Of a stretch of 39,316 nucleotides of DNA, positions 3,680 through 5,204 are shown piece by piece. The DNA is taken from the IMG/VR virus record IMGVR_UViG_3300006056_003026; one strand, written 5' to 3'. The stretch comes from a virus. The translations under genes and the position numbers were made by a program. The number at the start of each line of letters is the position of its first letter. Position 1 is the stretch's first letter. Under the pieces are notes generated by a model, which ran no database searches, was not told the DNA's origin, and worked only from the letters and a program-made list of their open reading frames with translations.

Positions 3680-4773
3680 TGAGATACGGTTACGCATTTC
3701 AGCAGCAGTTACGTTCGGAGATTGAGTCGATTCCCAAGGACGTTCGTGATCGTGTTGAACGCCCAGGAGCGTTGCAGGTCGACGATCTCATCAAGATGAC
3801 TGGTCAACCTCGTGCTGACGATGATGATACGTTCCTCATGAGCAAGCACAAGCCCTCGCGAAACTGGACGAGGTACAGGCCTGAGAACGACTTTTCTGAT
3901 GCCTTCGCTGCTGTGAACTCCGGACACGTGGCATTCGTGATCACGAACGGCGATGCTGGTACCTGGCGCGTGCCCGGGATCGGGATCAGTCTCATTGCGC
4001 ATAAGATCGCCTCGAGTGCGTTCAAGGTCAATTGTCAGATGTACAGGCCACCGACATGGATCATGTGCAGCCCGCCGTCGACACGTGAGCTAGCTAGCAT
4101 CATCAGCGGCATCTCCCCTCCCATGCAAGGCTGCATCTTCGAGGGTTTTGAAACGTACGTCATGAACGTGATGGGCTACATCGCGAAGGATGCTGAGGGT
4201 CATGCCATGACCATCTCCGACGGCGATGGTTCGTTGCTAGCGTCGTTGCTGGATGCTGGGGTGCTCGACGACAACCCTGACGTGAAGTACCTGTACGTTT
4301 CCGATTGCAGGGATGCGTCTACGTCGTTCGATGTTCATGCGTTGCAGCAGCACATCGAGGATGATGTCAAGCTAAGTTCGTTCGTGCACATCGAACCTGT
4401 CCTGGACGTTGACAATGACGATCGTTACGTCGCGTCAGCTGACGATAACGCTTGCATCGTCGACGGCTACTCGGTCTCGGCCGAGGTCAAGCACATGGCA
4501 TTCAACCGTGATCTTCACAGATCGCTTGGAACGCACATCATCAACGTTGAGACGCTGAAGGCGCATCAGCTGCAATGGCAACGTAAGAGATCAACCCGTG
4601 GTGCTAATGTGTTGCAGTGGTACGAAAGATCGCTTGCTAGCTTGACGAGGTTGGTTCCGAATACTGATCAGCTTCTCATCACCGATGACGGTGAGGATGC
4701 CGCGCAGCTCATGCACTTCAAGAGCGAGCGCGAGATGGCAGGCTACGAGAAGAGGTTCAAGCTCAAGTTCTGA
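3676..4773 (+). CDS. hypothetical protein
   Basis: ATGATG at 3676 overlaps the upstream stop. The ORF is open to 4773, and its TGA overlaps the next ATG. Confidence 0.55.
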   Translation: MMRYGYAFQQQLRSEIESIPKDVRDRVERPGALQVDDLIKMTGQPRADDDDTFLMSKHKPSRNWTRYRPENDFSDAFAAVNSGHVAFVITNGDAGTWRVPGIGISLIAHKIASSAFKVNCQMYRPPTWIMCSPPSTRELASIISGISPPMQGCIFEGFETYVMNVMGYIAKDAEGHAMTISDGDGSLLASLLDAGVLDDNPDVKYLYVSDCRDASTSFDVHALQQHIEDDVKLSSFVHIEPVLDVDNDDRYVASADDNACIVDGYSVSAEVKHMAFNRDLHRSLGTHIINVETLKAHQLQWQRKRSTRGANVLQWYERSLASLTRLVPNTDQLLITDDGEDAAQLMHFKSEREMAGYEKRFKLKF

Positions 4774-5204
4774 TGATCCCGAGGCTCAGTCCGTTCTCGC
4801 TCATCCAGGAGCACCTATTTCCCAACGATTGGCTCATCCTTGTGAGCTGCTTGATGCTGAACTGCACGAAGCGAGCTCAGGTTGAGAAGGTCCTGCCGAC
4901 GTTCGTTGCAAGGTGGCCAACGCCTCAGTCGTTCATGTCTGCTGATGATGCCGACGTGATGACCGCGTGTCGCTCGTTGGGCTTTGCAAACAAGCGAACA
5001 GCAACCCTCAAACGGATGACCCGAGTTTTTCTGTGCGGAAACTGGGAGCACGCAAGGGAGCTGCCAGGCATCGGCGAGTACGGAGCTCGAGCCTGGGAAA
5101 TCTTCTGCCGCAATGAGCTCGGTGATTCACCGCCTGTAGATCACGCGTTAACGAAGTACTTTGCGTATAGGAGGCAACTTGAGCAACGCAAAGAAGATCA
5201 TTGA
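4773..5204 (+). CDS. MBD4/MIG-family HhH-GPD DNA glycosylase (mismatch or uracil/thymine glycosylase-like)
   Basis: Collinear similarity to the MBD4 glycosylase domain: 'SPFSLIQEHLFPNDWLILVSCLMLNCT', the HhH motif 'ELPGIGEYGARAWEIFCRNE', and '...DHALTKY'. Confidence 0.75.
   Translation: MIPRLSPFSLIQEHLFPNDWLILVSCLMLNCTKRAQVEKVLPTFVARWPTPQSFMSADDADVMTACRSLGFANKRTATLKRMTRVFLCGNWEHARELPGIGEYGARAWEIFCRNELGDSPPVDHALTKYFAYRRQLEQRKEDH

Follow-up and report, generated by a model that had tools for sequence, protein, structure and literature searches.

The stretch of DNA analyzed in this study (IMG/VR virus record IMGVR_UViG_3300006056_003026), which we call the window, is 39,316 nucleotides long. 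It is part of a huge phage, and a syntenic relative lies on a 343 kb contig of SRR12762283. At positions 4773..5204 of the + strand, stop codon included, there is the gene of a stand-alone MBD4-type HhH-GPD DNA glycosylase; it begins with ATG and encodes a protein of 143 amino acids (aa). The open reading frame lies exactly where the initial annotation of this DNA had placed it, with the same length.

The genes around the glycosylase gene that are described here are all on the + strand. Immediately upstream (3679..4773) is the gene of a 364-aa protein that belongs, although highly diverged, to the UDP-sugar pyrophosphorylase (UDPGP) family, and the TGA stop codon of this gene has one base in common with the ATG of the glycosylase gene. 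This protein itself had no match in Pfam or PDB, and was assigned to the family from its clustering with the intact UDPGP-like neighbors of other loci. Compared with the homolog at locus L032, it has 19% identity (E 6e-9), and the G-x-G-T-R...K nucleotide-binding loop is deleted. On the downstream side, the gene of a conserved partner without an assigned function, c10 (5179..5532, 117 aa, TTG start, GGAGG at 5170-5174), shares 26 bases with the 3' end of the glycosylase gene. The c10-family profile matched the window c10 with an E value of 3.7e-18. No relative of c10 was found in Pfam, and its profile gave only chance-level matches against PDB. A scan for promoters and terminators gave nothing above the shuffled expectation. 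The operon structure that we predict is drawn only from the overlaps of the genes.

Farther upstream lie a candidate glycosylase/AP lyase resembling Pyr_excise, of the T4 endonuclease V superfamily (3200..3679; Pfam PF03013, E 1.2e-7, over the cut-off), a NUDIX hydrolase (2404..2940; Pfam NUDIX, E 2.6e-24) and the 3' end of a 5'-3' exonuclease/FEN gene (1..186; tblastn E 1e-18). The full FEN gene is present in the parent contig, and the complete gene in L001 carries PF02739 and PF01367. The MVP-like and TANGO2 genes mentioned in the initial annotation are real (Pfam MVP_shoulder 3.6e-28 and TANGO2 5.4e-31). Sweeps of 38 further open reading frames of the window with Pfam and PHROGs gave only DUF4325 and a weak match to Gp23. 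Other candidate host-interaction genes of the region are those of an ADP-ribosylglycohydrolase, NUDIX (which matches a PADLOC candidate family), VWA and TANGO2. PADLOC gave no assignment to a known defense system; a weak match to an HhH "nicking endonuclease" profile was seen.

We then compared the 143-aa protein with known glycosylases. In a phmmer search against PDB sequences, the 15 top matches were the glycosylase domains of human and mouse MBD4 (E 5.8e-22 to 9.8e-21), followed by clusterless MutY (7e-5) and MIG (1kea, 9e-4). Residues 3-132 were aligned to the MBD4 catalytic domain without a gap, in agreement with the earlier claim that the two can be aligned almost position by position. 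The motifs cited for that claim (SPF, L, QE, LF and W; GIG-YG; IFC-NE; DH-L-KY) are all present in the protein; at the site of the string ELPGIG, however, human MBD4 has ELHGIG. HhH-GPD was the sole Pfam domain (E 1.2e-8, over the gathering score). The methyl-CpG-binding domain (MBD) is thus absent, as had been stated, and a length of 143 aa leaves no room for it. That is, the protein is homologous only to the catalytic domain of MBD4 and not to the full-length vertebrate protein. No family of the curated prokaryotic NCBIfam library or of the phage library PHROGs was reached.

The structural comparison gave the same order. The AlphaFold model of the protein had a pLDDT of 93.6 and was superposed on the crystal structures of MBD4 with a TM score of 0.91-0.94, an rmsd of 1.4 A and 32-34% identity. 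The top 16 Foldseek matches in PDB were all MBD4 (TM 0.86-0.94, rmsd 1.3-1.7 A). The first match other than MBD4 was MIG (Mig.MthI, PDB 1KEA), with a TM score of 0.64 and 20% identity, and MutY and EndoIII likewise did not exceed 0.64. MIG is a prokaryotic thermostable G:T/G:U mismatch glycosylase linked to 5-methylcytosine (5mC) methylation, and is a functional analogue; it belongs with the MutY/Nth group to the same HhH-GPD superfamily, but its similarity to the phage protein is much weaker than that of MBD4. Judged from the sequence and the predicted model, the 143-aa protein is a member of the MBD4/MBD4L branch of this superfamily, and the match is far beyond chance.

These data also bear on the idea that the protein is a general Nth/MutY-like glycosylase for oxidized bases or A:8-oxoG, which resembles MBD4 only superficially. 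Weak NCBIfam matches to mutY (3.2e-5) and nth (3.1e-4) agree with this idea, and so does the frequent adjacency of the gene to that of Fpg/Nei, an oxidative-damage enzyme. However, mutY scored 23.6 bits where the cut-off is 286.5, and nth 20.5 bits where it is 211.7, and MBD4 is far closer both by sequence (E 1e-22 versus 1e-4) and by fold (TM 0.92 versus 0.64 or less). The protein also lacks counterparts of the Nth lysine and of the catalytic Glu of MutY, and it has no domain that reads 8-oxoG. The C-terminal [4Fe-4S] cluster loop carried by MIG, MutY and Nth is absent too: the motif C-x6-C-x2-C-x5-C was not found in the protein, and its C-terminus is only 20 residues past D123. We consider this idea very unlikely.

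In order to compare individual residues with those of MBD4, we scored conservation over 120 homologs; the human number is the query number plus 437. D123 (5139..5141, codon GAT) aligns with human Asp560, which is named as the catalytic residue of MBD4 (PMC3479182, PMC5406665), and was kept in 120/120 homologs. The initial annotation had named two outcomes that would refute it, a missing catalytic Asp and Nth or MutY as the best profile matches, and neither was observed. The segment L10-I11-Q12-E13 (4800..4811) corresponds to human 447-450. Q12 (Gln449) and E13 were found in all 102 homologs that cover these positions, and I11 occupies the position of Val448. In MBD4, Gln449 reads N3/O2 of the flipped pyrimidine, Val448 contributes through its backbone, and Gln449 and Tyr540 form hydrogen bonds with flipped thymine, uracil or 5-hydroxymethyluracil (PMC3479182). 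The equivalent of Tyr540, Y103, was also kept in 120/120 homologs. It lies in the helix-hairpin-helix hairpin L97-P98-G99-I100-G101-E102-Y103-G104 (5061..5084; human 534-541). When the hairpin was set against the E. coli Nth sequence, Y103 stood opposite Lys120, the catalytic lysine of the bifunctional Nth (G-I-G-E-Y versus G-V-G-R-K). Since there is no lyase lysine in the second HhH helix, the protein is predicted to be monofunctional. MBD4 also has no lyase lysine (PMC8307549), and the two proteins appear alike in this monofunctional design and in having no Fe-S cluster. We considered whether the conserved Cys26 and Cys112 might form a metal site and rejected this, because these positions are replaced by Ala/Gly or Phe/Val/Ile in some homologs, as is typical of core positions.

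Other DNA-contacting residues are changed. In L69-G70-F71...R75 (4977..4997; human Leu506-Gly507-Leu508...Arg512), L69 and G70 were invariant among the homologs. The backbone of Leu506, the equivalent of Leu69, reads the orphan guanine in MBD4 structures. Leu508, which intercalates into DNA in MBD4 (PMC5406665), is replaced by F71 in 119/120 homologs. The DNA-penetrating loop L29-N30-C31-T32-K33-R34-A35-Q36 (4857..4880) corresponds to LNRTSGKM at human 466-473, and the function of this loop has been described (PMC3479182, PMC5406665). The plug position of Arg468 is Cys31 here, and was C in 96, Q in 16 and R in 8 homologs. That is, the intercalating pair Arg468/Leu508 is not kept, and the phage protein has Cys31/Phe71 instead. 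Gly471, which lines the base pocket of MBD4 (PMC3479182), is replaced by Arg34 in 119/120 homologs, and the position of Lys562 is Ala125 in the phage clade. Because of these two swaps in the pocket, the substrate range could differ from that of MBD4.

The loss of the Arg468 plug might suggest that the protein is a pseudo-enzyme, a catalytically dead remnant that only binds DNA. However, this position is variable also in the eukaryotic long-form relatives (K24, R21, Q18, C10 and I9 of 96), which means that Arg468 marks vertebrate MBD4 rather than the whole family. The catalytic Asp and the substrate-binding residues are invariant across the homologs, and a comparison of the glycosylase gene with a 94% identical ortholog gave a dN/dS value of 0.085, that is, strong purifying selection. 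A dead remnant is therefore extremely unlikely.

We also examined the relatives of the protein. It belongs to a phage clade found at 58 viral loci. A search of 185,579 prokaryotic genomes gave a single contig with the clade, a phage-like MAG contig, and no homolog from a cellular prokaryote. Outside viruses, the nearest relatives are MBD4/MBD4L proteins of eukaryotes, namely of streptophytes (Arabidopsis MBD4L and homologs of Chara, Chlorokybus, Abrus and Phlomoides) and of a marine picoeukaryote-type contig, and the profile of the phage clade matched plant/algal MBD4L with E values of 1e-43 to 1e-36. Plant MBD4L has no MBD, as in the phage protein (PMC9266487). The plant and algal proteins differ in their size of 300-1300 aa in total, which is due to long extensions on the N-terminal side that in some of them include zf-4CXXC_R1; the domain is at their extreme C-terminus. 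They also have Gly, Leu and Met/Lys at the sites of the phage markers Arg34, Phe71 and Ala125. In the eukaryotic long forms as a whole, Gly was present at the Gly471 position in 80/96 and Leu at the Leu508 position in 90/96. Thus, the term "eukaryote-like" used in the initial annotation is right as to the nearest relatives; the protein is, however, no isolated import from a eukaryote and belongs to a diverse phage clade that has signature residues of its own.

In a neighbor-joining tree of the full data, viral and eukaryotic forms were separate, although this exact split appeared in only 13/100 bootstraps. When the tree was rooted with Nth and MutY, whose sequences aligned poorly, monophyly was supported for neither the viral nor the eukaryotic group. 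When 20 kb of the window was compared by megablast with a set of 50,697 phage records, nothing matched, which implies that there is no cultured close relative among them. Our literature search found no paper joining MBD4-like proteins with phages, or MBD4 and HhH-GPD with viruses and horizontal transfer.

The initial annotation had proposed protection against deamination, or else a part in base modification or anti-restriction; of these, the gene context of the clade favors a role in repair. FEN was found upstream of the glycosylase in 29 loci and NUDIX was conserved upstream in the type-A synteny (17-18 loci). The Pyr_excise-like gene, which shares the gene string with the glycosylase in the window, was found in several syntenic loci. 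Fpg/Nei with an intact MPEGPEV N-terminus followed a short distance downstream in 19-25 loci, which belong to two synteny types that differ greatly. In 9 loci there was a small PolX-like gene, and UvdE was near one mid-length relative. A search for cytosine-modification genes around the glycosylase gave a thymidylate-synthase-like gene in three near-identical loci only (L057-L059).

The closest linkage leads to a different consideration. UDPGP-like neighbors whose stop codon overlaps the start of the glycosylase gene were found at 14-21 loci, and c10 was directly downstream in at least 12. In addition, the base-pocket Gly471 of MBD4 is an invariant Arg in the phage proteins, and phage DNA hypermodification pathways employ nucleotide-sugar enzymes (PMC13326640). 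It is conceivable that the same fold does a different job, in which the Arg34/Ala125 pocket and the Cys31/Phe71 plug are retuned to a hypermodified or sugar-decorated base, within a DNA-modification or modification-editing pathway shared with c10 and the translationally coupled UDPGP-like protein, instead of mismatch repair. However, every residue of MBD4 that contacts the flipped pyrimidine is retained, and the UDPGP-like copy of the window is without its nucleotide-binding loop. No HhH-GPD enzyme is known to exchange or modify a base. The UDPGP linkage is confined to one synteny type and may therefore be due to common descent, while that with Fpg is seen in both types, and no glycosyltransferase or base-modifying gene was found in the window. 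Taken comprehensively, a different job seems quite unlikely.

Another consideration is that the enzyme acts in counter-defense or offense. That is, it may remove U or T made in phage DNA by a deaminase-type immunity of the host, or may nick host DNA at mismatches or unmodified sites and so aid host shutdown. Many other candidate host-interaction genes lie in the region, and glycosylases are described as taking part in phage-host conflict (Hossain et al. 2024, as cited in PMC13326640). However, nothing points to the targeting of host DNA, the conserved partners are repair and replication genes, and the reaction would be chemically identical to that in the repair of deaminated cytosines, differing only in the source of the lesion. 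We regard this role as unlikely.

The fold, the conserved Asp123, Gln12, Tyr103 and Leu69, the dN/dS value of 0.085 and the neighborhood of repair and replication genes point instead to repair. We think that the protein is probably a compact, cofactor-free and monofunctional MBD4-branch glycosylase of a huge phage, which mends deaminated cytosines, that is, mismatches of G:T, G:U or G with 5-substituted U, in the phage DNA. In agreement with this, the catalytic domain of MBD4 in isolation needs no MBD for full activity (PMC9266487). The glycosylase would grip duplex DNA through the HhH hairpin and flip a pyrimidine that forms a mismatch with G, namely U, T or 5-substituted U from deaminated C, 5mC or 5hmC; Phe71 and the loop of residues 29-36 would plug the gap left by the flipped base, and Asp123 would hydrolyze the N-glycosidic bond. 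Cutting of the abasic site might then fall to host enzymes or to an AP lyase of the phage, which would be the Pyr_excise-like protein in the window and Fpg/Nei in many of the relatives, after which FEN of the phage, together with a polymerase and a ligase, would complete the repair. Such an enzyme would protect a genome of 340 kb or more from C-to-T mutations, and its role would be weightiest if the phage DNA has 5-substituted cytosines, which are beyond the protection by uracil-DNA glycosylases.

Several findings count against repair of deaminated cytosines. The MBD4 intercalators Arg468 and Leu508 are replaced, and the pocket positions 471 and 562 are swapped. Within the 39 kb of the window, we found neither a cytosine-modification gene nor Fpg/Nei; CpG is not depleted, and the dinucleotide and palindrome statistics showed no motif avoidance indicating methylation. 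The tightest linkage, that of the overlapping frames, is with the UDPGP-like protein and c10, neither of which is a known base-excision repair factor.

Comparing the protein with that of human and mouse MBD4 (MED1; PDB 1NGN, 3IHO, 4DK9, 4E9G and 6VJW), the fold, the Asp, the Gln/Tyr pair and the equivalent of Leu506 are in common with the C-terminal domain. In contrast, the phage protein is a bare domain without the MBD or the linker, its gene sits in an overlapping operon, its activity is predicted, and its clade has Arg468 to Cys, Leu508 to Phe, Gly471 to Arg and Lys562 to Ala. Other phages have uncharacterized HhH-GPD proteins, namely the Xp12-like ones (Xp12 QNN97216.1, the "ENDO3c domain protein" of Stenotrophomonas phage AXL_1 and the "endonuclease III" of Janthinobacterium phage Donnerlittchen) and that of cyanophage S-TIM54. 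These are also stand-alone proteins of about 130-160 aa and have the Asp, Tyr and L-G motifs in common with the 143-aa protein. The Gln-Glu pair is kept in the Xp12-type proteins, and S-TIM54 has Val-Gln at that site. All of them are only about 30% identical to the 143-aa protein (Xp12 about 31%). The Xp12-type proteins have Trp at position 34, so that the clade's Arg34 is missing; like the low identity of the Xp12 homolog, this also counts against repair here. Position 125 is Lys both in these proteins and in human MBD4. The genes of the Xp12-type proteins belong to siphoviruses of 58-64 kb whose synteny is unlike that of the window. In the DNA of Xp12 every C is replaced by 5mC (PMC8256090), and directly after the homolog come the genes of a HAD hydrolase, a thymidylate-synthase-like protein, a dCMP deaminase and DHFR, a dCMP-modifying operon; this speaks for the repair of deaminated cytosines.

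A phage-borne clade that is broad, under selection and intact in its catalytic residues extends the MBD4 branch, for which our searches gave no member from cellular prokaryotes, to viruses of bacteria. It adds MBD4 to the phage genes whose closest relatives are eukaryotic, such as MVP, TANGO2 and a eukaryote-type UGPase. It also offers a testable idea of how huge phages, and phages with 5-substituted cytosine such as Xp12, may escape C-to-T decay beyond the reach of uracil-DNA glycosylases. These predicted mismatch glycosylases of about 140 aa are naturally minimal and have variant plug residues; they may be useful in structure-function work and possibly as tools for detecting or correcting deaminated 5mC. 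A bolder speculation, which we hold to be quite improbable, is that Arg34 in the pocket and the Cys/Phe plug, together with the lost Lys562, mark a retuned MBD4 lineage, which works with the UDPGP-like protein and c10 as a three-protein unit on another lesion or on a hypermodified or glycosylated pyrimidine, and/or that the catalytic domain of eukaryotic MBD4 came from this clade or is its ancient sister. If the latter were true, huge phages would share in the history of the repair of 5mC deamination in eukaryotes.

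The 143-codon ORF lies at 4773-5204 on the plus strand and begins with ATG, as the initial annotation had placed it. Pfam assigned its product to HhH-GPD (E 1.2e-8, 35.7 bits against a cut-off of 26.2 bits), and no PHROGs family matched it. When all PDB sequences were searched, the best 15 matches were the glycosylase domains of human and mouse MBD4 (E 5.8e-22 to 9.8e-21), to which residues 3-132 aligned without gaps. Outside MBD4, the strongest matches were clusterless MutY (7e-5) and MIG (1KEA; 9e-4), a thermostable G:T glycosylase. The NCBIfam models for mutY and nth have cut-offs above 200 bits, of which the protein reached about 20. 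The AlphaFold2 model, calculated from 98 homologs, was confident (pLDDT 93.6, pTM 0.88). It superposed on 16 MBD4 crystal structures with TM values of 0.86-0.94 and an rmsd of 1.3-1.7 A, but on MIG, MutY and EndoIII with TM values of only 0.56-0.64. MBD4 leads Nth and MutY in both sequence and fold, and the sequence ranking, the gapless alignment and the superposition bear out the proposed MBD4 assignment. The protein very probably belongs to the MBD4 catalytic-domain family, and the initial observation is confirmed.

In the gapless alignment, residue n of the phage protein corresponds to human residue n+437, a numbering verified against PMC3479182. The catalytic Asp560 is present as D123 (GAT at 5139-5141) and was kept in all 120 phage-family homologs, as were Tyr103 (human Tyr540, which contacts the flipped base) and Leu69 (Leu506, whose backbone reads the orphan guanine). 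Q12 (102 of 102) takes the place of Gln449, which in MBD4 touches the flipped T or 5hmU at N3/O2 and whose change to Ala (Q449A) abolishes activity. In the alignment Tyr103 stands opposite the lyase Lys of bifunctional Nth. This agrees with the report that MBD4 has no such Lys (PMC8307549). The protein ends 20 residues past the catalytic Asp, and its 143 residues contain no Cys4 Fe-S motif. Since dN/dS was 0.085 against an ortholog of 94% identity, the gene is a working one; a dead enzyme is highly improbable. Most likely, the protein acts on phage DNA as a monofunctional mismatch glycosylase, excising deaminated pyrimidines that lie opposite G. We consider it quite improbable that it is instead a general oxidative-damage glycosylase.

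Arg468 and Leu508 of human MBD4 intercalate via the minor groove (PMC5406665; PMC3479182), whereas the phage protein has Cys31 and Phe71. Among 120 homologs, position 31 was Cys in 96, Gln in 16 and Arg in 8, and position 71 was Phe in 119 and Leu in one. Gly471 and Lys562, listed among the positions lining the MBD4 base pocket (PMC3479182), are replaced by the near-invariant Arg34 (119/120) and by Ala125 (117/120). We compared 150 representatives drawn from an exhaustive profile search. Stand-alone forms carried Arg34 in 26 of 30, Phe71 in 23 and Ala125 in 20; the long eukaryote-type forms had Gly (80/96), Leu (90/96) and Met or Lys at the same positions. Arg34, Phe71 and Ala125 are the markers of the phage clade. 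Position 468 also varies among eukaryotic forms (K/R/Q/C/I), so that Cys31 is no argument against MBD4 membership.

The phage-clade profile, run against 1.84 billion representatives, gave 6431 matches at E <=1e-3 and 388 at <=1e-30. About 20 stand-alone proteins headed the ranking. After them, at E 1e-43 to 1e-36, came proteins of 300-1300 aa in which the domain sits at the very C-terminal end. The named long forms were from streptophytes: Chara (called MBD4 in UniRef), Chlorokybus, Abrus, Sphenostylis and Phlomoides. A TARA contig carrying one of the long forms nearest to our protein also holds Rav1, Kelch and intron-split kinase genes, which indicates a marine eukaryote. The description "eukaryote-like" is thus fair. 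Plant MBD4L, like the phage protein, has no MBD, and MBD4 catalysis proceeds without it (PMC9266487). A neighbour-joining tree separated viral from eukaryotic forms, with weak support (the exact split in 13 of 100 bootstraps) and no usable outgroup root.

The window is an exact match to a 40 kb ENA contig. Several features together indicate that the carrier is a huge phage: the window is syntenic with 247 kb and 343 kb Logan contigs that encode the 94% ortholog, its genes are short, tightly packed and often overlapping, one ORF has a weak T4 Gp23 capsid match, and an MVP-like ORF (24934-27621, minus strand) finds its matches in uncultured phage genomes (462-735 kb) alone. The 895-aa MVP-like product has Pfam MVP_shoulder (3.6e-28), Vault_3 and Vault matches and shares 42-44% identity with these megaphage relatives, the sole ones in the phage collection; its gene overlies a GC-rich stretch (0.59-0.62 vs about 0.54 elsewhere). 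A full-length GroEL-type chaperonin (11753-13399, plus strand) shares about 47% identity with bacterial GroL and with chaperonins of many phage records; its gene lies shortly downstream of an AAA ATPase gene (10017-11342).

A word-index search found ~140-aa homologs in 128 clusters (44-94% identity), and contigs 200-370 kb long carry some of them. Pattern-seeded scans found 58 IMG/VR loci with the glycosylase and, within the limits of the seed patterns, one locus only among 185,579 prokaryotic species genomes. This was a Bdellovibrionota MAG contig with phage synteny as in the viral loci; it is probably a prophage or a phage sequence binned with the MAG, and may point to the phage host. There (JBBAUR010000009.1, 600-7476), FEN (flap nuclease), c9, two NUDIX, UDPGP, glycosylase and c10 genes are followed by a DPPY-motif methyltransferase-like ORF.

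Deaminated 5mC is thymine, which is invisible to uracil-DNA glycosylases, and an all-5mC genome therefore needs a G:T glycosylase. Distant homologs (~30% identity) occur in Xp12-like phages; in the DNA of Xp12 itself, 5mC replaces every C (PMC8256090). In Xp12 (MT664984.1, 5914-8992) an unannotated HhH-GPD homolog comes first in a gene string, and directly after it stand genes for a HAD hydrolase, a thymidylate-synthase-like protein, dCMP deaminase and DHFR. This lead is an analogy and not evidence on the present phage; neither a DNA-modification gene nor CpG depletion was seen in the window. The same mismatch-glycosylase chemistry might serve counter-defence or offensive use, a reading we hold to be unlikely.

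The tightest physical links of the glycosylase gene are with a UDPGP-family gene and c10, a conserved small protein gene, rather than with base-excision repair (BER) genes. The UDPGP-like gene (3679-4773, plus strand), whose family is the eukaryote-type UDP-glucose/UDP-GlcNAc pyrophosphorylase, overlaps the glycosylase ATG with its stop codon, so that the two are translationally coupled. It is intact in relatives (L032, 4928-6004: Pfam UDPGP 2.7e-28; Arabidopsis UGPase E 3.5e-16), but the window copy is degenerate, with 19% identity to that of L032 and the G-x-G-T-R...K nucleotide-binding loop deleted. The c10 gene (5179-5532, plus strand; 117 aa, basic N-terminus) has a TTG start, preceded by GGAGG at 5170-5174, and overlaps the 3' end of the glycosylase gene. 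It lies directly 3' of the glycosylase in at least 12 related loci and has no relatives in Pfam or PDB. A specificity retuned in connection with these two neighbours is an unlikely alternative to mismatch repair.

Clustering of the ORFs of 50 loci gave two arrangements. Type A, the jumbo-phage group including the window, reads FEN ... NUDIX, (Pyr_excise-like), UDPGP-like, glycosylase, c10, trypsin-like/ClpP/Fpg, VWA, ADP-ribosylglycohydrolase; type B (31-48% identity) reads FEN, DnaB, RNR, ClpP, glycosylase, Fpg/Nei. In 19-25 loci of both types, an Fpg/Nei gene with the catalytic MPEGPEV N-terminus lies closely downstream of the glycosylase. The window holds the FEN 3' end (1-186), NUDIX and Pyr_excise-like genes, and no Fpg. 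Its NUDIX hydrolase (2404-2940, plus strand), though phage-encoded, matches PDC-S07 (E 1.6e-15), one of the candidate defence families in PADLOC. Its ADP-ribosylglycohydrolase (8106-9023) and TANGO2-family (9023-9757) genes, both on the plus strand, meet at a stop/start junction, and the pair is kept in the 343 kb relative. UvdE lies near a mid-length MBD4-type relative (L066), beside which the AAA-chaperonin pairing also occurs.

A mini PolX-like protein of ~190 aa, with weak Pfam matches to the DNA polymerase beta palm and thumb, is encoded within a few kb of the glycosylase in nine loci (L016, 10859-11440, minus strand, and eight others), and an RNA-ligase-family gene in L003/L004 (1783-2796). 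The repeated occurrence of a monofunctional glycosylase gene beside AP-lyase and flap-nuclease genes is consistent with a base-excision module encoded by the phage; with the PolX-like and RNA-ligase-family genes, FEN and Fpg/Nei would make a nearly complete phage BER set. Automated pipelines already label such phage genes MBD4, and our literature search found no paper joining "MBD4-like" and "phage", nor MBD4, HhH-GPD, viruses and horizontal transfer. What is new is that an MBD4-type protein occurs outside the host range expected for it and that its DNA-plugging residues form a set of their own.
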